From: a virus
Taxonomy: Duplodnaviria; Caudoviricetes
Direction: 5' to 3' (one strand)
IMG/VR virus record: IMGVR_UViG_3300033121_000711
Span: 1-64,000 of that record
DNA: 64,000 bases
The position numbers and the translations under genes are program-made. Positions 1,638 through 64,000 of the stretch are shown piece after piece. Position 1 is the stretch's first letter. Every line of letters begins with the position of its first letter. The notes below the pieces were generated by a model, which did not search any database, was not told the DNA's origin, and was given only the letters and a program-made list of their open reading frames with translations.

Positions 1638-2630
1638 CTACGCACCACGGGTAACAGAACTGAACCAGTTATCGTTAACTGATCCGTCACCCTCTAATGC
1701 TTCCTTAAATCCGTCCAACAACCGGCAACGAGCTTCACTATCTTCCTTGCTCACATCCCTAAAGAAATGATCGCTGTTAATAAGCTCCCACGCATACTGT
1801 GCTTGCGAGTAAACATTCCACTGAAACTCTGAACGCACTCTTGATCGATGTTCAGCAACCCGAATAGCGGGTCTTGAATCAGGTACAGCTTTACACGCAA
1901 GTTGATCGATAGCTACAATAAAATCTCCACCAATATCTTCACCGCACAACCATCCGTAAATCGAAAGCTGCCTTGCCCAATCTTCATGCAACTCATCTAA
2001 AGACTGAGCAACATTAACAAGAATACCGTTAATGTTAATTAGTTGAGCTTCTTTGTGTTGACCTTTATTAACAGAACCATCATGGAGACGCACATAACCT
2101 TTGAGTGGTGTGGTTGTACGATCAGCACAGTAACCACTAACCTTCCAATCAAAAATAACATGAGCCCCTTGACTATTGATATAGAAAATATCAGGCTTAC
2201 CTAAGAAAGGCACACCTAACATATTCTTTGTTACACCTTCTCTGTAACCGTTAATAGTGCCTTTAACTTCTAGCTCGAATCGTGGTTCCGAAATCGACTT
2301 TTGCAAATCAAGCATCAAATTGCCAAGAGCACCAGACCTTTTGTACAACTCGAAAAGATGCAAGCCAACAGGTCGGCCCCAATCTCTATTATGTGGTACA
2401 ACTTGAGCTGTAAAAATAGCATCAAGTTCAAATTTAGGATCGTTCTTACCGAAGAGTCTTTCGTATAGATAAGATTTCACGTAAGCATCAAAAGCAGAAC
2501 CAGCAGCCATTGGTTGAGTTTGAGGCTCTCGTGGTGGACGATTATCTGAGAGATAAGTCAGATAATACTCTTGCGGATTTTTAATAAAAATTCCAAGACT
2601 GGTAGGACTAAGATGTTCTGGCTTTCGCAT
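1638..2630 (-). CDS. PD-(D/E)XK (RecB/Cas4-like) exonuclease
   Basis: HLSPTS N-terminus, GKPD...DWK catalytic motif, QLSIY motif. Confidence 0.8.
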   Translation of the reverse strand: MRKPEHLSPTSLGIFIKNPQEYYLTYLSDNRPPREPQTQPMAAGSAFDAYVKSYLYERLFGKNDPKFELDAIFTAQVVPHNRDWGRPVGLHLFELYKRSGALGNLMLDLQKSISEPRFELEVKGTINGYREGVTKNMLGVPFLGKPDIFYINSQGAHVIFDWKVSGYCADRTTTPLKGYVRLHDGSVNKGQHKEAQLININGILVNVAQSLDELHEDWARQLSIYGWLCGEDIGGDFIVAIDQLACKAVPDSRPAIRVAEHRSRVRSEFQWNVYSQAQYAWELINSDHFFRDVSKEDSEARCRLLDGFKEALEGDGSVNDNWFSSVTRGA

Positions 2631-3035: not shown

Positions 3036-3109
3036 TACCCTGGGCGGGACTCGAACCCACACTTTACGGTTCTTAAGACCGTTGCCTCTGCCAATTGGGC
3101 TACCAGAGC
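3036..3109 (-). tRNA. tRNA-Leu (anticodon TAA), short variable loop, no encoded CCA
   Basis: GCTCTGG-TA-GCCCAATTGGCAGAGGC-A-ACGGT CTTAAGA ACCGT-AAAGT-GTGGG TTCGAGT CCCGC-CCAGGGT-A folds as a cloverleaf. Confidence 0.9.
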
Positions 3110-3118
3110 ACCTCTCCC

Positions 3119-3571
3119 CTAGAGGAACAATCTAGGATCACAATTACGTGGCCACTCGTAAGGGAGAAGCGGTGAGTCGGTCCAACCAAACGCACTATAA
3201 TAGAGATAATCTTTCCTAAGTAAATTACCTCTATGACTCGCGTGAAAAGCTTCATTGCCTAGCCATTTTGGCAGTGGCACAGATTGTTGAGTAGGCGTAA
3301 AATCAACAGTCTTATAAGCAAGAATTTTTCCATAACACGAATCTTTAAAACCCCTATCCAGCCATTCTGAACAAATAGCTAGACCGTAAGCCACAAGTGC
3401 GTCTTTGAAACCCCACCACATAATACAAGCCGGATGTCTATGGACTCGATCTTTTGGATTATCCAATCCATTCAGTAACTGAATAACTTCTGCACGCTGT
3501 TTACCTAATCTTCTATCGTCTAGAACACTTGCCGACTGGACAAAATCGGCATAAGGTAAAAACGTCTGCAC
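3119..3571 (-). CDS. pyrimidine dimer DNA glycosylase / endonuclease V-like (MSMEG_6728 family)
   Basis: MQTFLPYADF..SA.VLD.RRLGKQR.E, HPA..MW, PKWLG...FHASHR.NLLRKD motifs. Confidence 0.85.
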   Translation of the reverse strand: MQTFLPYADFVQSASVLDDRRLGKQRAEVIQLLNGLDNPKDRVHRHPACIMWWGFKDALVAYGLAICSEWLDRGFKDSCYGKILAYKTVDFTPTQQSVPLPKWLGNEAFHASHRGNLLRKDYLYYSAFGWTDSPLLPYEWPRNCDPRLFL

Positions 3572-20827: not shown

Positions 20828-23533
20828 ATGTCGCAAGTTATGAAGACACAAGCCATTAAAGCGTTTCTTAACAATTTTGCACCAGTTGATTTAGCAAGCC
20901 TGTACAACGAAAATATGGAAGTGCAGGTTACAGTAGCTAAAGATCAAGGTGAACGTATCGAAGGTGATTTTAAGGGAAAAATGTGGCACGGATATACTGA
21001 TGGTATGCAGGTGTGGAAGCCTATCCGTATCCCACGTAACGCTAATACTGAGCCCGAGTTTGAAGATACGCCTATGTCATACGATCTATCCGCACATGCG
21101 GAAGGCGTAGGCATGACAGGTTGGGATTGGAAGAACAAAATAAGTCGATGGGTGGCTTTTGACTTTGATGCAATTGTTGGCCACTCTGAAAAACATTCAA
21201 AGAAACTTACTCCGGAAGAGTTACAAGCCATACAAGTTTCTTTGGCTAATATTCCAACAGTTACGATTCGTCGATCAACTGGTGGTAAAGGATTGCATCT
21301 TTACGTTTTTCTTGAACCTATACGGACAAACAATCATAACGAACATGCTGCCGTAGCTCGTGCAATCTTAAGTCAACTTTCAGGTATTGCTGGTTTTGAT
21401 TTTTCATCTAAAGTTGATATTTGTGGCGGTAATATGTGGGTCTGGCATCGAAAGATGAAAGACAATAATGGTCTAACCATTATCAAACAAGCCACGCAAA
21501 CAGCTACAGTACCATCAAATTGGGCAGACTATACAAAAGTAGTATCAGGGCGTAGGCAGAAGAATTTACCACGCTTCATTGAAAGCCAATCTCAAGTTCA
21601 TCAAGATATTGAATCTGTCTTTGAAGAATTGACAGGTCAACGTCTGCGGGTGCAACCAGATGCAGAACACCGTAAAGTGATGGATTGGTTGTTCACAAAC
21701 TATTCATCTTGCTCTTGGTGGGATGCCGAACACCATATGCTTGTGACGCATACACATGCATTGAAAGAATGTCACGTTGAACTTGGATTGCGTGGTAAGT
21801 TTGAGACTAATGCTACTGGTACTGAGAAAGGTTACGATCATAATGCGTTTGCTTTTCCAATCGCCAAAGGTGCTTGGGCTGTCCGTCGTTACACACTTGG
21901 CGTTGCCGAACATCCATTCTGGGAGCAAGACGGGGCGGGATGGACTCGTTGCTTATACAATCGCGAACCCGATCTGGGTGGGGCCTCACGTATATATGAA
22001 GGTATCGAGCGATCTGAAGGTGGATTCTGGTTCGCTACGGCAGACGCGGCACAAAGTGCAGCACTCCTCTTAGGTGCCGATCTTTCGCTACCGGCGTGGG
22101 TGCTAGGTAAGCCAGCTATTCTTAAGCTTCACAAGTCTGGTAGATTGATTGTGGAGATTGAAAAAGATTCAAATAGTCCACAACTTCCAGGTTGGCTTGT
22201 TAAAGGCAAAAAGTTTGAACGTATTTTTAATATTCGTACGATGGGGCCAGATGAGTCTGAAAGCTTCAAGCTAGATGAACGTCTACGGCATCTTGTCGGC
22301 GAAGATGGTCTCGACGCTGGTTGGGTAATCAAGTCTGAAGGTGATTGGCATGGTGAACCGTTTCAACACGTTAAAGTGTATTTGCAAGGAGCGGGCTATC
22401 AACCAAAAGACGTAGCTATCATTTTAGGTAGTAACATTGAGCAGTGTTGGCGGCTTGTTAATCGTCCTTTCAAGGATGAATATCCGCAAAATAGGCAATG
22501 GAATCGTAATGCAGCACAGTTGAGATTTAAGCCATCGCTTAATCGCGATCAGTTAAATTATCCTAACTGGATGAAGATTCTTCAGCATTGCGGTCAAGGT
22601 CTAAATGAGGCTGTAAGGAATCACGCGTGGTGCAAATCAAACGGTATTCTTACAGGTGCGGATTGGCTCAAATGTTGGATCGCTAGTATTTTTCAAGAAC
22701 CAACAGAACCACTACCTTACATCTTTTTCTATGGACCACAAGATAGTGGTAAGAGCATATTCCACGAAGCCGTATCCTTGCTTATGACTCGTGGCGTTGT
22801 TCGTGCAGATACGGCTCTTACAAGCCAGTCCGGTTTCAACGGTGAACTAGAAAATTCTGTTATCGCAGTTGTTGAGGAGACAAATTTACAAAAGAATCAA
22901 GTTGCATATAATCGTATTAAAGATTGGGTAACTGGTCGTCAATTGCCTATCCATAAGAAATTAAGGCAACCTTACTCAATTCAAAATACAACTCATTGGG
23001 TGCAATGTGCCAATAGCCATTTGGCTTGTCCAGTCTTTCCTGGTGATACTCGTATTACTATGATCTTGGTTGATTCTTTGGATCCTAAAACTACGATTCC
23101 AAAGAAACAATTTCTACCTATGCTTGAGGCTGAAGGTTCCGATTTTATTGCAGAGCTTTTAAGTCTTGAGCTGCCACCGAGCAATGATCGTTTGAATATT
23201 CCTTGTATTGCAACTGAGGATAAAGCATTAGCTGAACATGCTAACAAAACTCCTCTTGAAATGTTTGTTGAAGAGAAAACTTATTACACTCCTGGATACC
23301 GTGTTAAGTTCAGCGAGTTCTATAGTAAATTTCTTGAATGGCTTGATCCACAACAAATGCATATGTGGACAGCTATTCGAGTTGGACGCGAACTGCCTCC
23401 ACGTTATGCTAAAGGACGAATGAGTAATAATGAAGTTTGGATCGGTAATGTTAGCTTTGAAGAGCAACAACCCACAAACTTACGATATGTCGTAAGGGAA
23501 GGTAAATTGGTGCAAGATGTCTATAAAGTATGA
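20828..23533 (+). CDS. primase-polymerase (AEP) fused to SF3/D5-like helicase
   Basis: DFD, STGGKGLHLY (AEP); GPQDSGKS Walker A, VVEE Walker B, DTR. Confidence 0.9.
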   Translation: MSQVMKTQAIKAFLNNFAPVDLASLYNENMEVQVTVAKDQGERIEGDFKGKMWHGYTDGMQVWKPIRIPRNANTEPEFEDTPMSYDLSAHAEGVGMTGWDWKNKISRWVAFDFDAIVGHSEKHSKKLTPEELQAIQVSLANIPTVTIRRSTGGKGLHLYVFLEPIRTNNHNEHAAVARAILSQLSGIAGFDFSSKVDICGGNMWVWHRKMKDNNGLTIIKQATQTATVPSNWADYTKVVSGRRQKNLPRFIESQSQVHQDIESVFEELTGQRLRVQPDAEHRKVMDWLFTNYSSCSWWDAEHHMLVTHTHALKECHVELGLRGKFETNATGTEKGYDHNAFAFPIAKGAWAVRRYTLGVAEHPFWEQDGAGWTRCLYNREPDLGGASRIYEGIERSEGGFWFATADAAQSAALLLGADLSLPAWVLGKPAILKLHKSGRLIVEIEKDSNSPQLPGWLVKGKKFERIFNIRTMGPDESESFKLDERLRHLVGEDGLDAGWVIKSEGDWHGEPFQHVKVYLQGAGYQPKDVAIILGSNIEQCWRLVNRPFKDEYPQNRQWNRNAAQLRFKPSLNRDQLNYPNWMKILQHCGQGLNEAVRNHAWCKSNGILTGADWLKCWIASIFQEPTEPLPYIFFYGPQDSGKSIFHEAVSLLMTRGVVRADTALTSQSGFNGELENSVIAVVEETNLQKNQVAYNRIKDWVTGRQLPIHKKLRQPYSIQNTTHWVQCANSHLACPVFPGDTRITMILVDSLDPKTTIPKKQFLPMLEAEGSDFIAELLSLELPPSNDRLNIPCIATEDKALAEHANKTPLEMFVEEKTYYTPGYRVKFSEFYSKFLEWLDPQQMHMWTAIRVGRELPPRYAKGRMSNNEVWIGNVSFEEQQPTNLRYVVREGKLVQDVYKV

Positions 23534-23816
23534 AGGTTCGCGTATTAATCGTAATAGTCATTGTCCTTGCGGCTCTGGTCGTAAATTTAAAAATTGTTGT
23601 AAAGACGAAAGATTTGTAACGGTGAATTATGAAGATACTTGCGTTCGGACATCGAAAGTATGTGGGGAAGGACACGGCGGCGAGGTTCGCTCTGACGTAC
23701 CTTCGGAGCATGAACAAAGTCAGGAACGCCCAGAAGAAGGGCTTCGCCGACAAACTGAAAGACGTTTGCTATCAACTTTACGGTTGGGCGGGAATGATGC
23801 CTGGCCACTGGTATGA
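23517..23816 (+). CDS. SEC-C zinc-binding motif protein
   Basis: INRNSHCPCGSGRKFKNCC; the tail overlaps the kinase gene. Confidence 0.7.
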   Translation: MSIKYEGSRINRNSHCPCGSGRKFKNCCKDERFVTVNYEDTCVRTSKVCGEGHGGEVRSDVPSEHEQSQERPEEGLRRQTERRLLSTLRLGGNDAWPLV

Positions 23817-24213
23817 AGAAAATGGTAGACAATCATTAAAAGATGAAATTCTTCCAGCTCTAGGCAAATCTCCTAGAGCTATTTGGATTGCATTCGGTAA
23901 CGAAGTTAAAAATGCAGCTTACGACCATACTTGGCTAGACTTTCTATTAAAGAATACTGATGGCTGCGATTTCTTACTTGTTAGCGATATGCGTTTCCCT
24001 AATGAAGCTGAACGTATTAAACAACTTGGAGGTTATGTCGTTAGAATCGATCGTCCAAATATTGCACCTACTTCTGACGCAGCAGATGATCCTCTATCTG
24101 ATTATACTGGATGGGATTTCGTCATCACTAACACAGATCTTCAGAAGTTTTACACAGATGTTAGTCATGTTGTAGAGGAAGTTTTAACATGCACACCTCG
24201 CTTAGCGATCTAA
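23629..24213 (+). CDS. deoxynucleoside monophosphate kinase
   Basis: GHRKYVGKDT, FADKLK, SDMRFPNE. Confidence 0.9.
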   Translation: MKILAFGHRKYVGKDTAARFALTYLRSMNKVRNAQKKGFADKLKDVCYQLYGWAGMMPGHWYEENGRQSLKDEILPALGKSPRAIWIAFGNEVKNAAYDHTWLDFLLKNTDGCDFLLVSDMRFPNEAERIKQLGGYVVRIDRPNIAPTSDAADDPLSDYTGWDFVITNTDLQKFYTDVSHVVEEVLTCTPRLAI

Positions 24214-24515
24214 ATAAAAACACACCTACTGTTAGGTGGTGGATCGAGTCTAAAATCAAGGAAGATATAACTAGACTGCCGTTACTTAATGAAGTTGAAC
24301 TTTATCCAAAGTTCAATTATTTAGCTACTATTTGCGAAGATCTTGGAATCAACTTCTGGGATATGGTTCAAAGTGTTAGCGGCTATCATGGTATGCGTAT
24401 TTTAATGCATGCCATTTTGATTGTGAAAGGATTTCCAAATGGAGTTAGACAGATGGGTGAAGAAAGAGATAAAAAGCCGTCTATACCAAGTGATTCAATT
24501 CCAGGCGTACTTTGA
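24189..24515 (+). CDS. hypothetical protein (paralog of next gene)
   Basis: RWWIESKIK...ICEDLGINFWDMV. Confidence 0.5.
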   Translation: MHTSLSDLNKNTPTVRWWIESKIKEDITRLPLLNEVELYPKFNYLATICEDLGINFWDMVQSVSGYHGMRILMHAILIVKGFPNGVRQMGEERDKKPSIPSDSIPGVL

Positions 24516-24705
24516 TTACGAGATGTTTGATACTTGGGTTAATATCTGTATACAGGTAGATATTTCTATCTGGGATATTATTTTAGATCTTGCGGGTGAT
24601 CGTTCGATTGCCCGCTTCCTTAACACTGTAATAGAAAAATATAAAAATGAGCAAAGAATTGTTGGGAATGTTAAACGCTTTAGATTCCCACGAAGAAGTG
24701 CGTGA
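24439..24705 (+). CDS. hypothetical protein
   Basis: RWVKKEIK...ICIQVDISIWDII. Confidence 0.5.
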   Translation: MELDRWVKKEIKSRLYQVIQFQAYFDYEMFDTWVNICIQVDISIWDIILDLAGDRSIARFLNTVIEKYKNEQRIVGNVKRFRFPRRSA

Positions 24706-25528
24706 ACAATACACGCGAGCACCTTTTGGGTATCCAGGAGCTAAAAGCCGAAGCTTAGAAAATATTTTACCACATCTACCGTATCGTTCAGGTTACGGTG
24801 AACCGTTTGGTGGTAGCGGTGCTGTTCTTTTAGCCAGGAACGCATCGTCTTTAGAAATTTTCAATGACCGTTATAGCGGTGTAACTTGTTTTTATCGCTG
24901 TATACGTGATATTAGTAAGATGAACGCTTTATTAGATAGGCTTAATCTTTGCCTACATTCACGAGAAGAATTTATATGGTCTCGCGATACTTGGAAAAAT
25001 TGCGAAGACGAAGTTGAACGTGCTGCTAGATGGTATTATATGGTGGCATGCTCTTTTGGTTCTCAAGGTCGTAATTTTGGAAGATGTATTAAAGGCAAAG
25101 CTCAAATTGGTCCTAAGATTAAAAATAATCTTAAATTTTTTGTTGATTGCCATAAAAGGCTTCTTAACTGTCAGATTGAAAATCAAGATTGGAGAACGTG
25201 TCTTAAAGATTACGATAACTCTGATTTTGTTTGGTATTTAGATCCCCCGTATTATGAGTACGCTAAGGGGATGTATGAATGTGAAATGTCTAAAGAAGAT
25301 CACGTAGAGCTTATTGAACGCATTTTCACGTTAAATGGTTTTGTTGCCTTATCTGGTTACGATAATGAACTTTATGAAAAATATCCTTGGGATTATAAAT
25401 ATAGCTGGATGATACAAGCTACAGCCCTCTCTCAAGGATTCACTGAATCTAATAATTTAGCCGGTAAAGAAGAAACTATGAAACGCGGGATGGCTAAAGA
25501 AGTTTTATGGATTAAGGAAGCTAAGTAA
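24647..25528 (+). CDS. DNA adenine methyltransferase (D12/Dam family)
   Basis: YPGAKS, EPFGGSGAV, YLDPPY. Confidence 0.93.
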   Translation: MSKELLGMLNALDSHEEVREQYTRAPFGYPGAKSRSLENILPHLPYRSGYGEPFGGSGAVLLARNASSLEIFNDRYSGVTCFYRCIRDISKMNALLDRLNLCLHSREEFIWSRDTWKNCEDEVERAARWYYMVACSFGSQGRNFGRCIKGKAQIGPKIKNNLKFFVDCHKRLLNCQIENQDWRTCLKDYDNSDFVWYLDPPYYEYAKGMYECEMSKEDHVELIERIFTLNGFVALSGYDNELYEKYPWDYKYSWMIQATALSQGFTESNNLAGKEETMKRGMAKEVLWIKEAK

Positions 25529-26166
25529 TGTCGGACGTCAATCTTAAAACATCAAGACGTAATGGGATGATGCATCTCAACAACAACTTAATGTGTGTTG
25601 TTGATTGTGAAACAACTGGAAATAGACCGGGCGTTAATGACATATATCAAATTTGTATTTTACCTTTAGATAAAGATCTAAAGCCTTATAAAACGATTAT
25701 TCCTTTTTATTGCAATATGAAGCTTAAAAGGCCCGATGATATAGATCCTAAAGTCTATCGAAGACAGCGTGAAGCTATTTGTCGGGCAAATACTGAAGGC
25801 TTAGATCCTGACAGGGCGGCAGACTTATTTGATGAATGGTTCGCAAAATTAGAGCTACCGTTTAATAAGCAAATCGTTCCACTTGCTCAGAATTGGCCAT
25901 TTGATCGTGGTTTTATTATTGACTGGTTAGGTCATGAATCTTTTGAACAATATTTTAGTCCTCTGTATCGCGATACAATGACAGCATCGTTATTTATGAA
26001 CGATCATGCTGATTTCCATAATGAAAGAGTACCTTTCCAGAAGAACTCGCTACGTTGGATGACTACACAATTAGGTATTATTCATGATAATGCTTATGAA
26101 GCACTTTCTGATTGTTTAGCCACTGCCGAGTTGTATAGACTACTCTGTAAAGGTTTCATTAAATAA
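25528..26166 (+). CDS. DEDD 3'-5' exonuclease (DnaQ-like)
   Basis: VDCETTG, AQNWPFD, AYEALSD (Tyr where HxAxxD is usual). Confidence 0.88.
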   Translation: MSDVNLKTSRRNGMMHLNNNLMCVVDCETTGNRPGVNDIYQICILPLDKDLKPYKTIIPFYCNMKLKRPDDIDPKVYRRQREAICRANTEGLDPDRAADLFDEWFAKLELPFNKQIVPLAQNWPFDRGFIIDWLGHESFEQYFSPLYRDTMTASLFMNDHADFHNERVPFQKNSLRWMTTQLGIIHDNAYEALSDCLATAELYRLLCKGFIK

Positions 26167-58977: not shown

Positions 58978-59055
58978 TTCAATATCCTCATTGCAAGCCA
59001 GGGGCTGCAATTCTTACACAAGATATTTGCAGATCACCCCCTTTACTGCTATTTC

Positions 59056-59172
59056 TCTCATATCTGTGCACGCTTTTTGGACCAAATTTTGACAGTGTTA
59101 GTTCCCTCATATAGAGATACTGCCTTTTACAGAAAATTTCTACAGCTATTTTTGGCCCAAAAAGCGTGCACG
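59056..59172. repeat. ~21-bp inverted repeat GTGCACGCTTTTTGG(A/G)CCAAA flanking the late promoter; third copy at 63980-64000
   Basis: 59056-59076 (+), 59151-59172 (-), 63980-64000 (+). Confidence 0.8.
59117..59143 (-). promoter_or_regulatory. phage-specific promoter motif copy 5 (GTAGA-N17-AGTAT), head of the late operon
   Basis: Matches the consensus and points into the structural operon. Confidence 0.7.
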
Positions 59173-59216
59173 CGTACCGTAGGTACGCGTAAAATCAAAT
59201 CCGTTTCAACTTTTTA

Positions 59217-59243
59217 GTAAATTTTTTCTTAAAAGTGTCGTAT
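59217..59243 (+). promoter_or_regulatory. phage-specific promoter motif copy 6 (GTAAA-N17-CGTAT)
   Basis: Matches the consensus; divergent from copy 5. Confidence 0.6.
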
Positions 59244-59281
59244 AGGTAGGTGAGGGTATAAATTTTTTAGATTTGATTTTC

Positions 59282-59370
59282 AAAATCGCGATTTTGAAAA
59301 TCGCGATTTTGAAAATGCAAAATGCAAAAATGCTTTTTGTTTCTTGCTCTTGTTTCTTGTTTCTTGTTTA
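59282..59370. repeat. tandem palindromes and short repeats
   Basis: (AAAATCGCGATTTTG)x2, (AAAATGC)x3, (TTGTTTC) repeats. Confidence 0.75.
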
Positions 59371-59472
59371 AAAATTTATAATTCTGGCATAGAGTGGGGC
59401 ACCGGCTGGACCGCTGTACACTGCCATTTTCACAGCTGGCCACGCTCCCCTCCTGGGGGCCTAACCGGGGAC

Positions 59473-59502
59473 TTGCTTTCAACCCTGGCAGTATGATATA
59501 AT
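59473..59502 (+). promoter_or_regulatory. sigma70-type early promoter (extended -10)
   Basis: TTGCTT-N18-TATAAT with TG at the extended -10 position. Confidence 0.6.
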
Positions 59503-59668
59503 GGGGGTGTAAGGAAGAGAGGGTGGCTCGTGGGAGCCAGACGGAGAGCGAGTGCCACGCGTTACTCACAGTGGGAGTGCGTGCCTTTCTCAGAAGAGCC
59601 TAAGCTGGCTCCCCACAAGCGAGCCCTTTCAACCTTGCAGGGGATAACTACGTCAAGAGGGTCATGCT

Positions 59669-59806
59669 ATGTACATCTGGGAGGTAGGGGTTGACGGTGA
59701 TACCGTCGGCGGTATCTACACGCAAACATCGTGCATCTTCAACGCTATCGTAGTGGCCCGTGAAGCGTTCGGCCCGAACGCTGTCCCATTCATCATCTGG
59801 AGGTAA
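59669..59806 (+). CDS. small early protein (45 aa)
   Basis: GAGG RBS; MYIWEVGVDGDTVGGIYTQTSCIFNAIVVAREAFGPNAVPFIIWR. Confidence 0.5.
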   Translation: MYIWEVGVDGDTVGGIYTQTSCIFNAIVVAREAFGPNAVPFIIWR

Positions 59807-59986
59807 CGCTTAGCGGCGTCGGCACCGTGATCGTCGCGACCTATCTGGTGGTCGCGATCGTGGCCTGGGGGTCAACCCGCCCATGACCCTAGGCATCATC
59901 GTCGCCCTTGTCGTGATCGAGCGGATTGTCGCGAGCCGAGACGTTCGGCTCGCGGAACGGCACCGGGAAATTTTTTGGAGGAACGC

Positions 59987-60015
59987 TTGACAGCCGGCCG
60001 TTACTGGCCTAAGAT
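59987..60015 (+). promoter_or_regulatory. strong sigma70-type early promoter
   Basis: TTGACA-N17-TAAGAT with an upstream A/T tract. Confidence 0.8.
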
Positions 60016-60020
60016 GTATA

Positions 60021-60364
60021 TACCGGGAAAGGGAACGCACAGCGGTTCGAGTCCGCTACCCGGGCCTTGCCCACACCTTGTCTTGTTAAGGAGTCCGCGT
60101 AGCTTTTGAGGATCATGATCCCTAGCGGTCGTGTATCCGTGGTCTAGCGAACCTTCTAATTGGCGAGCCGTCCGGAACGGTCAACCCCGGTAGGGGAGAT
60201 ACGGGCCAAGCCGTGTGAACTGCTGTGTCACGGTAGGCTTATGAGGCGGGATACGCTGGTGACATTGAAAGCCAGGAACCGCTGACACCTTGTCCGCAAG
60301 GGAGCAATACGGAACCGCCGACCGTGGTGAAACTCCACGGCCAAGGAGCGGTCCCGGTATAACC
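60021..60364 (+). ncRNA. candidate large structured non-coding leader RNA beginning with a tRNA-like minihelix
   Basis: No ORF in the track; T-arm AGCGG-TTCGAGT-CCGCT closed by CCGGG/CCCGG; many stems including GCAA and TGAAA loops. Confidence 0.6.
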
Positions 60365-60890
60365 GGGGGATAGGCAAAGGGGCTGGACTCTTAACTCTTA
60401 AGAGAAAGGCCAGTCCGATGATTACCAGCTATAAGAACCAAGTCTGCGTCCGTGAGTCAGTCGAAATGGGTCGGACCTACGAGATCCGCTTCTACACTAA
60501 CCCGGAAGGGGAGGTCTACGGTATCAGCGTCTCGCTGGCCACCAGCGGGAACTGGAACTGGACGAAGAATGTCGGGTCGTATGACGACTGGCAAATTAAG
60601 ACTCGGGTCGAAGATGCGGCCATCGAGGCCGGACTCACGATCCCGGCGTACCTCTGGTACGTCGAGCCAGAATGCGAAAGTTTCTGGCTTGTCGTAATCA
60701 ACGAGAACATGAACGACTTCAATGCTCGGGTCGTCAACGATACCGAGTACATCCCGTTCACAAACGAGCGTATCTACACCGCATGCCGAGAGCTGGATAC
60801 GGCTCTCGAACAACTCGAGGAAGCGAAAAGCTACCTCGCAGAACGTTTCGGTCGCTAATCACCTCAGTCCAGCCTCTCTGCCTGTCCCCC
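60365..60890. repeat. inverted repeat pair 1 (25 bp) enclosing ORF 60418-60858
   Basis: 60365-60389 / 60866-60890; 22 WC pairs, 2 G-U, 1 A-C. Confidence 0.9.
60418..60858 (+). CDS. early hypothetical protein
   Basis: ORF with a purine-rich RBS. Confidence 0.7.
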   Translation: MITSYKNQVCVRESVEMGRTYEIRFYTNPEGEVYGISVSLATSGNWNWTKNVGSYDDWQIKTRVEDAAIEAGLTIPAYLWYVEPECESFWLVVINENMNDFNARVVNDTEYIPFTNERIYTACRELDTALEQLEEAKSYLAERFGR

Positions 60891-60909
60891 CTGTTGTACA
60901 TGGGAATAG

Positions 60910-61278
60910 CGTAGGATCCGTACAAACGGGCCGTCAACAGAATGGACGGTCAAGATGTACGAGACATATACTTCTGACGGCGAATTTCTGGAGTTCTACG
61001 ATAGCGTCATGGACGCTATCCTAGGGACTCTGAAATACTGGCCTGAGGACAACAACCCTAAGACGGTCGTTGTCCGTAACCCGGAAGGCATAGACCTTGC
61101 CACGATAGCGGCAAGGTCATGTTATGAGGCGGTAGTAGTAACGGCCGACCACATTGAAGTGGTCAGCCAGATTAACTACTGCGATGGCCGCATCGTCGCG
61201 ACAACCATGCTAAGAAATGGCCATCAGTTCAAGATCAACCACTAACAGGGTTGACGGCCCGTCTGTACGGATCCTACG
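60910..61278. repeat. inverted repeat pair 2 (29 bp) enclosing ORF 60955-61245
   Basis: 60910-60938 / 61250-61278; one mismatch. Confidence 0.92.
60955..61245 (+). CDS. early hypothetical protein
   Basis: ORF track. Confidence 0.7.
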   Translation: MYETYTSDGEFLEFYDSVMDAILGTLKYWPEDNNPKTVVVRNPEGIDLATIAARSCYEAVVVTADHIEVVSQINYCDGRIVATTMLRNGHQFKINH

Positions 61279-62560
61279 TTGGGTGTGGTGTCTCCGCCAA
61301 TACCCCGGATAGTATAATCCCGGATTTTCAACATCAGAGTTTCTACTATCCGGTAGACTGCGTGTGCAGTCTACCTTAACTATGTTCGAGCCGGTTGGCT
61401 CGAAACTGTTCAGGAGTGTATATCATGGCGAAGAACATCACGAAAACCGTTTCGATCGACACCTTGATCGTGGACTTCAAGACCAATGTGCGTCTGGCGT
61501 CCAACTACGATCTCCCGGCAATGGAGCAGTCCATTGTCGAGAAAGGGAGGATCGAGGATGCGATACATGCCAGACTGTGTGACGGCGTTGTCCTTCGGGG
61601 TAATCGTCGCACGCTCGCAGGGCAGAAACTGCTGAAGGATCCCGCCACCCCGCAAGAGGTGGTCGCTAACCTGAAAAAGGTCGTCGTGATCTATCACGAC
61701 GTGGCACCGGGATCAGCGGAGGAGCTGTCCATTGTCCTCGATCACGGTAGCCAGAAGAAGCTGTGCAAGACGGAAGTCTTGTTGAGCGTCTGGCGGCTCG
61801 ATCGCCAGTTCCAGAGCGAGATGCAGATCATCAACCGACTGTACTTCGCTCTGGCGGAGTACACTCGTCGCCAGGAAAAGGCGATCGAGGCTAGCAAGAT
61901 CGTGTCTCTCAAGGAGAGGCAGGACTACCTCCGATCGTGGTTGCACGGAACCGTCGGCAACTATATGTTGGCCGGCAACAAGATGGGCGAGTACGTGCGT
62001 CAGCAGATGGAATTGACCCACATGGCCGAAGACGGCCTACTCCCGCAAGGTGTTACGGTCGAGTGCAAGATCGACCGGACTAGAATGACGAAACTGTCCG
62101 CCGCGAAAGAAGCGGACAGCGACGCCAAGAAGGGCGGAAAGGGCTGGACGTACGAGGCTGGCGGCGAGAAGTTCAATGAACTTCTCGAAACGTTCAAGGC
62201 CGAGGATCGTGGCGAAGTCGAGAAGGAGAAGAAAAGCCGGCCTTCCCCGAAGGAGTTGAAGGATCGGGCAAACTCCTTCAAGAGCCCTGCCATCAGGTCT
62301 GCCCTGATGGTTGCGGCCGGAGAGGTTGAACACGGCAAGGATCTCGTGGAGCTGGATGACCGTCTGCATCGTATGCAGATGGTCACGGATACGCTGTCCA
62401 AGCGTATCGGAGAGATCGCCGACGAAAAGATCGTTGCCCTCATCAAGGCCATCATCGGCGATGGACCGGCCGGTGAAATTGAATTGGCGATCAACAAGAT
62501 CGTCGGCAAGTAAAGTAAGTTAGCCCCTATCCGGGGTATTGACGAAGCCACCACACCCAA
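61279..62560. repeat. inverted repeat pair 3 (34 bp) enclosing ORF 61425-62513
   Basis: 61279-61312 / 62527-62560; three mismatches. Confidence 0.92.
61425..62513 (+). CDS. divergent ParB/Srx N-terminal domain protein
   Basis: NVR...Y.LPAM..SI...G, VLRGNRR..A; AGGAG RBS. Confidence 0.75.
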   Translation: MAKNITKTVSIDTLIVDFKTNVRLASNYDLPAMEQSIVEKGRIEDAIHARLCDGVVLRGNRRTLAGQKLLKDPATPQEVVANLKKVVVIYHDVAPGSAEELSIVLDHGSQKKLCKTEVLLSVWRLDRQFQSEMQIINRLYFALAEYTRRQEKAIEASKIVSLKERQDYLRSWLHGTVGNYMLAGNKMGEYVRQQMELTHMAEDGLLPQGVTVECKIDRTRMTKLSAAKEADSDAKKGGKGWTYEAGGEKFNELLETFKAEDRGEVEKEKKSRPSPKELKDRANSFKSPAIRSALMVAAGEVEHGKDLVELDDRLHRMQMVTDTLSKRIGEIADEKIVALIKAIIGDGPAGEIELAINKIVGK

Positions 62561-62571
62561 AAGGAGGAAGT

Positions 62572-62748
62572 ATGAGTGCATGGGCATACGTCAAGAAAGA
62601 TCTTGACGTATGGCGGTACTGTATGAGCCGATACTTCGCACTATGCGAACGTATCGGCGGAACCGAATGTGCAAAAAGGTGTGTTCGACACCTTTTCAAG
62701 AGATGTGTCGCGGAACAGGTTCACACAATCCTGGAGTTAGTATCATGA
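62572..62748 (+). CDS. small hypothetical protein
   Basis: AGGAGG RBS; MSAWAYVKK... Confidence 0.6.
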   Translation: MSAWAYVKKDLDVWRYCMSRYFALCERIGGTECAKRCVRHLFKRCVAEQVHTILELVS

Positions 62749-62909
62749 AGATCCAGACGACTGGTAGGTTCATCAGTGTTTGCGAGCCCAACCAAGGTCG
62801 CACGTATGATGAAAATGGGCGTTTGCTTACGCGATCGCTCGTTACTGGGCGATCCCGCAAGCTGAACAAAAAGCTTCACGCACGCAAACTAAGGCGTGAA
62901 GTTATTTAG
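62745..62909 (+). CDS. small basic hypothetical protein
   Basis: GGAG RBS, ATGA overlap. Confidence 0.55.
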   Translation: MKIQTTGRFISVCEPNQGRTYDENGRLLTRSLVTGRSRKLNKKLHARKLRREVI

Positions 62910-62996
62910 TCCACATCCGGGGTAGCGATCATCCCCCGCTACTGAAACATAGGGGATGAACGGAGACACCACATTTGTTTCCCGGAGTGAAAAAGC

Positions 62997-63200
62997 ATGA
63001 AACGTCTCATAACGTTTGATATCGGAGACCGTTTCCGGTATCAGAACTGTATATTCGAGGTGAAAGAGTTCGTATACAATAACGGACTCTTGTCCCATTT
63101 GGATTGTATCCTGGTGAGGTTTTTCTCAAACAATAAGTGGGTCTTTCCCGCAAACATTGTTGAGCAATTCTCACCGGAATTGCTTGTGGAGCTCAAATGA
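62997..63200 (+). CDS. small hypothetical protein
   Basis: GGAG RBS; F.IGD.F motif. Confidence 0.55.
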   Translation: MKRLITFDIGDRFRYQNCIFEVKEFVYNNGLLSHLDCILVRFFSNNKWVFPANIVEQFSPELLVELK

Positions 63201-63904
63201 TAATGTTTACACTGTTTCTGGGCATAATTCTGTATATTGTGCTCAGAATGCAAAAGTAAACCCGTGAGCCTAGCTAAACTAGGTGGTTCCGTGTTTATTG
63301 AAAACGGAACCACGAGTCAAGGAAAAGCTACATGCTGATAATCACCCCGAAACAATGGAATGAGGCTACAATAAACGCCAGGTTGCGTTCATTGGGCTAC
63401 TGTGAACTACGATATGTTCAGGTATATCGGTTCAATATACCGCATACTTGAAATGCTCCCGGAGACGGTTCATTGTATCCGTCTAATGTGTTGAGGATTG
63501 GTGTATCACGGAACAAAAAGCCGTGAATATACCAAACAACGTCGTAGTGAAAAAAGTCAATAGGTTATTCCGGGAGCATGTTTGGGTAGATTCAGACGGT
63601 AACGTCTGGGATTATCCGAAAGACGATTGCGTAAAAAAGGAGGTATACACTGCGAATTAATCGGAACGCTCTATTGGAAACTTTTGGACTACCCCAAAAA
63701 ATTCCGGCAGAGTATACGGCGGTTTTCTACAATGTGGAAAACTGGTCGTTTTGTAAGACTTATAGCGAGCGTGAACTGATCGGGACAATTTTGTCATTCT
63801 CCCGTCTCGGAAAAAGAAACATCGTGTTTATGTTGAATGTTCTTGCGGTCGTTTGATAACGACTGGCAAGTTCAAACAACACAGGTGCCTAAAGGCACGC
63901 AAAT

Positions 63905-63940: not shown

Positions 63941-64000
63941 TGATTTGACCAAGCTAACTAGCTTGGTCCAAGCCAATTCGTGCACGCTTTTTGGCCCAAA

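Follow-up and report, generated by a model that had tools for sequence, protein, structure and literature searches.

Transfer RNA-like elements are known to direct the processing of longer RNAs in several systems. The tRNA-like modules of mascRNA/MALAT1 and of the gammaherpesvirus 68 TMER sit on a longer RNA, recruit RNase P or RNase Z, and thereby set the end of that RNA; these systems belong to eukaryotes or animal viruses, use other polymerases, and have complete or almost complete cloverleaves. Plant mitochondria have t-elements, reportedly described by Hanic-Joyce in 1990. Found with the motif GGTTCRANYCC, such t-elements direct RNase P and RNase Z cuts at mRNA ends (Forner et al. 2007, PMC1920247). 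Here we describe a tRNA-like minihelix in the genome of an uncultured phage that resembles the t-elements in having an acceptor stem next to a T arm of the GGTTCRANYCC type, placed inside mRNAs or at their ends. The two differ in that t-elements are organellar and often have a degenerate cloverleaf, whereas a linker of 9 to 14 nt replaces the D and anticodon arms of the minihelix, and in that the minihelix stands at the start of a phage early leader and, in most copies, is flush with the promoter. Moreover, RNA termini produced by RNase P and RNase Z fall at the ends of t-elements, whereas for the minihelix we propose such cleavage from its sequence and setting.

Phages have processed leader RNAs of their own. 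According to PMC5499578, CI of P4, C4 of P1/P7, and M3 of phi80 are small RNAs without a T loop that are cut from phage early leaders and matured by host RNase P, as may happen here; the minihelix, unlike these RNAs, keeps a canonical T arm. The only c4-related Rfam match that we obtained (12.9 bits, in the related phage L011) was at chance level. In addition, hammerhead ribozymes flank genes in prophage operons, and one of them heads the early transcript of the haloviruses HF1/HF2; in the text of Perreault et al. (2011, PMC3088659), their proposed role is to cut long phage transcripts, as is proposed here, and that text describes no tRNA-like element beside the hammerheads. Unlike the hammerhead-bearing phages, the window yielded no hammerhead, with none among the Rfam matches over 59300 to 63800, and a protein- or RNase P-dependent signal is proposed instead. 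We found no paper and no Rfam family on anticodon-less minihelices in phage leaders.

The window, by which we mean the whole 64,000-nt stretch of DNA analyzed, covers the first 64 kb of a phage record of 92.7 kb (~93 kb) that is 99% complete. The G+C content is 40.7%, and the leader sits in a block of 55 to 63% G+C (~59400 to 62950), which is the main plus-strand block in a map of long open reading frames (ORFs), the exceptions being 20828 to 26166 and a few short ORFs. On the left, minus-strand structural genes stop at 59010 and are followed by an AT-rich repeat region and then by two sigma-70-type promoters, P1 and P2. The operon runs from the leader through an accessory cassette to a protein of ~100 aa and a weakly ParB-like protein of 362 aa, which we used as an anchor (Table 1). 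The first gene after the leader, ORF146, had no homologue anywhere in our homologue search. The 96-aa ORF matched no known family and is homologous to the ~100-aa protein of L011 (33% identity; the L011 and L018 homologues are 50% identical to each other) and, as judged by eye, to one in L014. The anchor protein has ~49 relatives, counted as cluster representatives, most of them on short contigs and several on contigs of 86 to 96 kb, and ParB_N was matched, weakly, by just 3 of 43 relatives. The loci of the relatives have the same layout, with minus-strand late genes including an M10 peptidase and then a G+C-rich plus-strand island, and every relative has a 350- to 750-nt ORF-free leader or gap ahead of the anchor gene. 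The AT-rich region at 59060 to 59370 contains a palindrome of 50 nt (59272 to 59321) as well as tandem repeats of the GATTTTGAAAATCGC type, and copies of a ~25-nt motif flank the G+C-rich island on both sides, at 59060 to 59370 and at 63979 to 64000 (on to 64325 in the genome). These elements may serve as an origin or as an array for protein binding.

Table 1. Coordinates of features in the window and in other phage contigs.
Feature	Sequence	Coordinates	Strand	Details or basis
Promoter P1	Window	59473-59502	+	TTGCTT 59473-59478, 18-nt spacer, extended -10 TGaTATAAT ending 59502
Small hydrophobic-peptide ORFs	Window	59827-59886, 59883-59990	+	19 and 35 aa, ATGA overlap
Promoter P2	Window	59987-60015	+	-35 TTGACA 59987-59992, 17-nt spacer, -10 TAAGAT 60010-60015
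tRNA-like minihelix	Window	60022-60065	+	Acceptor and T arm, discriminator C60065, no encoded CCA
Minihelix acceptor strands	Window	5' 60022-60028; 3' 60058-60064	+	Sequence
Minihelix linker	Window	60029-60040	+	12 nt, contains GG
Minihelix T arm	Window	60041-60045, 60046-60052, 60053-60057	+	AGCGG, loop TTCGAGT, CCGCT; sequence
Variable 5' part of leader body	Window	60066-60130	+	Pyrimidine-rich tail CUUGCCC, first ACACCTTGTC copy, hairpin CCTT/AAGG
Domain GTATC/GATAC	Window	60133-60137 / 60198-60202	+	Encloses twin hairpins; then AGAUACGGGC; common to L012 4686-4737
Twin hairpins	Window	60168-60180; 60185-60196	+	CCGT/ACGG; CCCC/GGGG
Hairpin AAGCC...GGCTT	Window	60208-60240	+	Inner CCGTG/CACGG; sequence
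Two-tier hairpin	Window	60246-60282	+	Outer GCGG/CCGC, inner CTGG/CCAG, conserved 12-nt loop UGACAUUGAAAG
Module B	Window	60283-60367	+	CCTTG/CAAGG (second ACACCTTGTC), conserved AAUACGGA, outer CCGCC/GGAGCGG, two further hairpins
Module B hairpins	Window	Within 60283-60367	+	CCGTGG-UGAAACU-CCACGG (T-loop-like heptaloop); CCCGG/CCGGG
First panhandle, 5' arm	Window	60365-60389	+	25 nt, 88% complementary to 60866-60890
ORF146	Window	60418-60858	+	146 aa
96-aa ORF	Window	60955-61245	+	Homologue of ~100-aa protein preceding anchor gene in L011, L018
Anchor protein	Window	61425-62513	+	362 aa, weakly ParB-like
Type II hammerhead	L014	3590-3648		Directly after homologous promoter, at minihelix position; RF02276, 21.3 bits, E 0.028 (201-nt search)
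Type II hammerhead	L011	3854-3919		Head of long module B-bearing leader; 29.4 bits, E 2e-4 (201-nt search)
Type II hammerhead	L018	~2425-2490		Just upstream of promoter of module B leader
Type II hammerhead	L236	~3089-3155		Ahead of small-peptide ORF
Minihelix candidate	L036	1409-1459		IMG/VR scan
Minihelix candidate	L089	2147-2197		IMG/VR scan
Minihelix candidate	L071	62-110		IMG/VR scan
Minihelix candidate	L106	1961-2010	-	IMG/VR scan
Minihelix candidate	L119	6860-6911	-	IMG/VR scan
Minihelix candidate	L105	2594-2643	-	IMG/VR scan
Minihelix candidate	L115	5764-5807	-	IMG/VR scan
Minihelix candidate	L088	7845-7893	-	IMG/VR scan

The TTGACA-N17-TAAGAT promoter named in the preliminary description of this DNA was recovered as P2 in a consensus scan, with 10 of 12 consensus matches and an A/T tract upstream at 59970 to 59979. 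In six relatives (L007, L011, L013, L016, L235, and L236), a minihelix is likewise preceded by TTGACw-N16-18-TAnnnT and an A-rich upstream tract. Farther upstream, P1 is followed by a G+C-rich leader of ~190 nt (region 59473 to 59668) with the motif CTCAGAAGARCC, and both P1 and this leader are conserved in L007, L016, L144, and L235. Two 151-nt contigs from run X3 match 59415 to 59702 and no other part of the region; the run is labeled metagenomic RNA-Seq, and that these contigs represent RNA is a guess. None of the contigs of run X1 aligned. Between the two promoters lies a pair of ORFs for small hydrophobic peptides that terminates within the -35 box of P2. Similar peptides (…TYLVLATLAY…) are encoded upstream of the minihelix or hammerhead locus in L007, L011, L014, L016, L144, L235, and L236, and in the close relative X4 the peptide ORFs carry in-frame deletions of 6 and 21 nt.

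Directly behind P2, the minihelix could be parsed at 60022 to 60064, without a D arm or an anticodon arm, as had been claimed, and with a 12-nt linker in their stead. It thus combines a GGTTCRANYCC T arm with an adjacent acceptor-like stem in what would be a longer transcript, as is typical of t-element-like signals. Five of the seven acceptor positions are paired (CCGGG/CCCGG), with mismatches at 1-72 and 7-66; because this acceptor has 5 bp and is mismatched at both ends, the window copy would probably be a weaker substrate than the copies of the relatives. Neither ARAGORN (tmRNA search included) nor Rfam called a tRNA or tmRNA at 60022 to 60065, and the Rfam match to the minihelix was confined to the T arm, with the cyano_tmRNA model, at 11.4 bits against a gathering score of 70. 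Compared with a tRNA (RF00005), the T arm has a loop of the GTTCRANYC type and directly adjoins the acceptor 3' strand (5 of 7 acceptor pairs in the window), yet the 12 nt that separate the T stem from the acceptor 5' strand leave no room for a cloverleaf, and we rejected a tRNA identity. The tRNA-like domain of tmRNA (RF00023) resembles the minihelix in joining acceptor and T arm via a short D-loop-like linker, and with the tmRNA model the L007 minihelix gave an alignment covering both model ends (19.8 bits, E 6e-4); a G3-U70 pair occurs in the L007 and L011 copies and is absent from the window copy. Unlike tmRNA, however, the minihelix has no tag reading frame, pseudoknots, or CCA. A permuted or two-piece tmRNA was also rejected, as both acceptor strands are present and closed on the 12-nt linker and ARAGORN called no tmRNA. 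Elsewhere in the genome, outside the window, two more canonical T-arm motifs lie on the minus strand at ~85,885 and ~71,489, neither being an ARAGORN tRNA; the former has an acceptor stem of 7 bp (GGCTAGA/TCTGGCC), and its anticodon-like loop is oversized.

A T arm with a flanking acceptor stem was found in L007, L011, L013, L016 (twice), L144, L235, and L236, relatives with 36 to 89% identity in the anchor protein. Across the nine copies, the T arm GGTTCGAnTCC is kept, with one variant, TGCAACT, while the acceptor stems are unrelated in sequence and complementary all the same (CCGGG/CCCGG, TCGGGGG/CCCCTGA, CGGGAGG/CCTCTCG, CGGCCG/CGGCCG, TGTGCGG/CCGCACA, and TGTACAG/CTGTACA). Acceptor pairs were counted by script, as MAFFT misplaces the 5' acceptor strands where linker lengths vary. 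By this count, 57 of 63 acceptor cells are paired, compared with 37.3 ± 4.0 when partners were permuted among copies, and none of 10,000 permutations reached 57. Each acceptor position has two to four pair types, and the 7+5 geometry holds in all nine copies. In X4, a close relative known from contigs, the sole change in the minihelix (G60064>T) turns the A60022/G60064 mismatch at 1-72 into an A-U pair. Since the G-U pairs of the minihelix would be C-A mismatches on the other strand, the constraint acts on the plus-strand RNA. Every linker (9 to 14 nt) contains GG, which may take the part of G18-G19 and fix the T loop in a tRNA elbow. None of the nine copies encodes CCA, and the sequence behind the minihelix is a tail of the CUU(C)GCCC type in L007, L011, L144, and L236.

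This pattern bears on whether the minihelix could be a functionless remnant, left either by the decay of a tRNA gene or as the core of an attP site derived from a tRNA. In phages, such cores are often copies of tRNA gene 3' ends, and the present phage does have tRNA genes. A remnant would, however, hardly have kept the complementary 5' strand through compensatory changes in nine copies or a fixed position after the promoter. Furthermore, no tyrosine integrase (PF00589) is encoded in the genome, which is 99% complete, and the exact 25-mer has no second copy in the viral collection. We therefore regard a remnant as extremely improbable.

Seven of the nine copies follow a P2-type promoter, with a gap of 4 to 8 nt between the -10 box and the helix in six of them and of 15 nt in L013. 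Given this short gap, transcripts from P2 should begin almost flush with the helix. The other two copies, L016 (3599 to 3640) and L144 (1335 to 1379), have no promoter and start 4 to 8 nt past the stop codon of a small hydrophobic-peptide ORF, and these copies apparently lie inside transcripts. In the window, transcripts from P1 would run through the minihelix too. These positions also bear on another possible role, in which the leader would be a cis-acting RNA for processive antitermination or transcription control (put-, nut/boxA-, or EAR-like) and would allow read-through of the structured cassettes. The operon is indeed long and rich in strong hairpins, and the leader, which lies just behind its promoter, is tied to the operon and not to a particular downstream gene. 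Yet the minihelix is also found far from any promoter, the conservation of the T loop points to tRNA enzymes and not to RNA polymerase, no Rfam family was matched, and plus-strand terminator-like sites in the operon are no commoner than in shuffled sequences. An antitermination leader is therefore improbable.

In some relatives, a type II hammerhead occurs at or near this locus (Table 1). The L014 hammerhead lies exactly where other phages have the minihelix, and L011 has both elements, a minihelix behind P2 and a hammerhead. The cores of the four hammerheads (L011, L014, L018, and L236) are complete, with CUGANGA, GAA, A15.1-U16.1, and the cleavage-site H17. Stems I (7 bp) and III (6 to 7 bp) are closed and stem II (4 bp) is open; stems I and III covary around the invariant core. 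All four score 21 to 29 bits and are under the Rfam gathering cutoff (37 bits). Because a hammerhead takes the same spot in a relative, the minihelix is most likely an RNA-cutting signal rather than a piece of one large new RNA machine. Recruitment of RNase P or RNase Z by the minihelix was the part of the earlier interpretation that gained most from the comparison, through the hammerhead in the same position and the apparent use of the minihelix inside transcripts, with cleavage itself being what these arrangements would predict. The swap also weighs on the idea of a tRNA decoy that would titrate a host reader of the acceptor and T arm, e.g., a defense nuclease or a nucleotidyltransferase toxin. 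A strong promoter would supply such a decoy early and in large amounts, and the elements of the tRNA elbow are kept, but the minihelix is replaceable by a hammerhead, which mimics nothing, its acceptor sequences are free to vary, and it has no CCA end. The chance that the minihelix is a decoy thus seems very small.

We propose, with a probability of roughly 60%, that the locus encodes a structured 5' leader of the early operon that is headed by a t-element-like RNase P and/or RNase Z signal setting the 5' end of the leader. As to the enzyme, the cut site, and the purpose, we infer the following from sequence. The operon would depend on the host polymerase, and the minihelix would form a coaxial helix of acceptor and T arm, a tRNA mimic for host tRNA enzymes. 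RNase P may trim P1 read-through transcripts at 60021/60022, and/or RNase Z may cut after C60065. Precursors of tRNAs that lack CCA need RNase Z, and this phage has tRNA genes of its own, none of which encodes CCA, which we count in favor of an involvement of RNase Z. Either cut would give the leader a defined 5' end regardless of upstream transcription, and P2 transcripts would start within a few bases of the helix, flush with it. The type II hammerheads of the relatives would do the same job autonomously. Two variants can be envisaged. In the first, RNase P cuts and the helix would stay on as a flush 5' stem, just as a hammerhead would leave a 5'-OH beside its stem I, and both 5' ends would be protected against 5'-end-dependent decay. 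In the second, RNase Z would remove the helix and expose a single-stranded 5'-monophosphate end with a pyrimidine-rich tail. The modules of the leader body may then act on the early operon in cis, through stability, translation, or control of transcription, or else in the form of a released RNA.

The leader body (60066 to 60364) had been described, together with the minihelix, as one densely structured, ORF-free RNA of ~340 nt. It is indeed overlapped by mechanical ORFs of ≤49 aa alone, and single-base indels between relatives in its conserved part led us to reject small ORFs or coding. The density of structure did not hold up against shuffled sequences, the control named in the preliminary description itself: the minimum free energy is -132.3 kcal/mol compared with -127.0 ± 6.2 for shuffles (z = -0.86), and the minus strand gave z = -0.65. 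Because the fold energy is no better than that of shuffled sequences, the structural case rests on the comparison with relatives. Nor does the body behave as one unit, as its first part is variable (60066 to 60130, with no similarity to relatives in blastn and nhmmer searches), the other modules are combined differently in each relative, and the energy is at chance level. A MAFFT alignment of whole leaders was uninformative, and no module of the body is universal to all relatives.

The stretch from 60133 to 60282 is common to L012, and part of it, the two-tier hairpin, is also common to L007. In L012, the twin hairpins carry compensatory changes (CCGA/TCGG and ACCC/GGGT), and the hairpin aligned with AAGCC...GGCTT differs in sequence (CGCAC/GTGCG), which is weak evidence from two sequences only. 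The inner stem of the two-tier hairpin covaries, with GCGG/CCGC and ACGG/CCGT versus CTGG/CCAG, giving three different stems around the invariant loop core GACAUUGAAAG; the outer GCGG/CCGC is also backed by compensatory changes (L012 and L007), and the loop core GACATTGAAAG is identical in these two phages. The sequence features named in the preliminary description all lie at the stated places, and most of its listed stems are present, several of them with compensatory changes; CCGC.TAG/CTAGCGG is not conserved: X4 reads ATTA for CCGC at 60095 to 60098, with no partner-strand change listed. The repeated ACACCTTGTC noted there does occur twice, at 60073 to 60082 and 60286 to 60295.

Module B is 77 to 83% identical to its counterparts in L011, L018, and L235, unpaired bases included, which exceeds the 56 to 62% amino acid identity of the neighboring protein. 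Within the module, the stem of CCGTGG-TGAAACT-CCACGG shows compensatory changes relative to L011, L018, L235, and L007, its heptaloop reads UGAAAYU across relatives, and the conserved unpaired runs of the module include AAUACGGA and GCCAARGA. Among four sequences only, 94.3% of cells are paired and 6 pairs have changed on both sides. A covariance model of module B (R1) found it complete only in these four (the window, L011, L018, and L235) and did not detect it in L007, L013, L014, L016, L144, or L236. A different hairpin module with TAGCAMGGCAACAG occurs in L007, L144, and L235, and a separate leader type occurs in L016 and L236. Two resemblances were examined and set aside: GGUGAAAYUCC resembles part of the core of the cobalamin riboswitch, yet there is no Rfam match, and GTGAAAC, which recalls a parS half-site, is not palindromic. 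Judged by its sequence, the body from 60066 to 60364 is therefore a mosaic of conserved hairpin modules, each common to some relatives only. The G-U pairs and the compensatory changes show selection for RNA structure on the plus strand, and the data support a non-coding leader that would be transcribed from the conserved sigma-70-type promoter.

Downstream of the body, three long-range inverted repeats (25, 29, and 34 bp) lie in 60365 to 62560, with one early gene inside each. The first of these predicted panhandles surrounds ORF146, and its 5' arm, which overlaps the 3' edge of the leader, is the 3' bound of the leader body. That the leader might guide the processing of these panhandles, as the preliminary description proposed, is a guess. 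Sequences from runs X2 and X4 match the window up to 60412 and then diverge, with the arms and the leader kept and a different gene inside the first repeat; X4 is alike again at 60571 to 60671 and from 60867. Overall, the gene after the leader is ORF146 in the window, another gene in X2 and X4, the conserved ~100-aa protein in L011 and L018, and the anchor gene in L012 and L235.

Such an arrangement might also be expected if the body were a discrete and stable large non-coding RNA of ~300 nt that acts in trans, as a regulator or decoy, and is freed by cleavage on either side. Host tRNA enzymes at the minihelix, or a hammerhead in relatives, would generate the 5' end, and a cut in the stem of the first panhandle would generate the 3' end. 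Built from T-loop-like hairpin modules, such an RNA could, e.g., regulate the early-to-late switch or sequester a host factor. In keeping with this idea, the boundaries are defined on both sides, in all relatives a minihelix, a hammerhead, or a promoter stands at the head of an ORF-free leader of 350 to 750 nt, module B is conserved above the neighboring protein, and the leader is retained while the downstream cassette is exchanged. On the other hand, we looked for a terminator or 3'-end signal of its own and found none, the modules are mixed by lineage with none universal and the 5' third variable, and the fold energy is not above chance. We consider a released RNA of this kind possible but unlikely, and favor the structured leader headed by a tRNA-like processing signal.

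Database searches placed the leader apart from described families. The preliminary description could not assign it to RNase P, tmRNA, or a riboswitch, and in line with this the Rfam covariance models gave no family match in the leader; GOLLD, ROOL, raiA, HEARO, RNase P, riboswitches, and C4 were all rejected on this ground. Between 59800 and 60600, no family was matched at E ≤ 10 besides the T arm and two chance matches outside the leader, and between 59300 and 63800 none was matched at E ≤ 1. A blastn search of 50,697 phage records gave no match to the leader, searches of IMG/VR with the ORF146 protein, the exact T-arm 25-mer, and the module B pattern gave no useful match, and no DNA-level similarity was found in the phage, IMG/VR, and JGI collections. 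A search of IMG/VR with GGYGACATTGAAAGCC returned 89 matches, approximately the chance expectation for a 16-mer; 15 of them passed a hairpin/motif screen, none with the downstream sequence of the leader, and several repeat one coding-like stretch. Scanning metagenomes with the ParB-like alignment recovered four loci, all of them short and with little DNA upstream.

A scan of IMG/VR for a promoter plus a T arm yielded 76 T arms that do not belong to tRNAs called by ARAGORN. Of these, 4 have a fully paired 7-bp acceptor at the spacing of the minihelix (0.64 expected), and 13 have at least 6 pairs (6.2 ± 2.2 expected), a modest enrichment with a handful of credible candidates (Table 1). In these unrelated contigs, a consensus promoter is followed within 9 to 14 nt by an anticodon-less minihelix. 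The candidates in L071, L089, L105, and L119 form one group, and the one in L115 is followed by ACCA.

If the minihelix and the hammerhead are interchangeable, phages would have at least two ways to give the pieces of early transcripts defined, structured ends, one borrowing host tRNA enzymes and the other self-contained. If true, this would provide a testable purpose for the clustered phage hammerheads, a question open since 2011. Anticodon-less tRNA mimics would be a missing annotation class, with no Rfam family and skipped by tRNA finders. The phage family offers natural swaps before homologous leaders, with a minihelix, a hammerhead, or a promoter without either element directly behind it. 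The leader modules, and module B above all, would be RNA motifs that head the early genes of a barely known group of ~90-kb phages.
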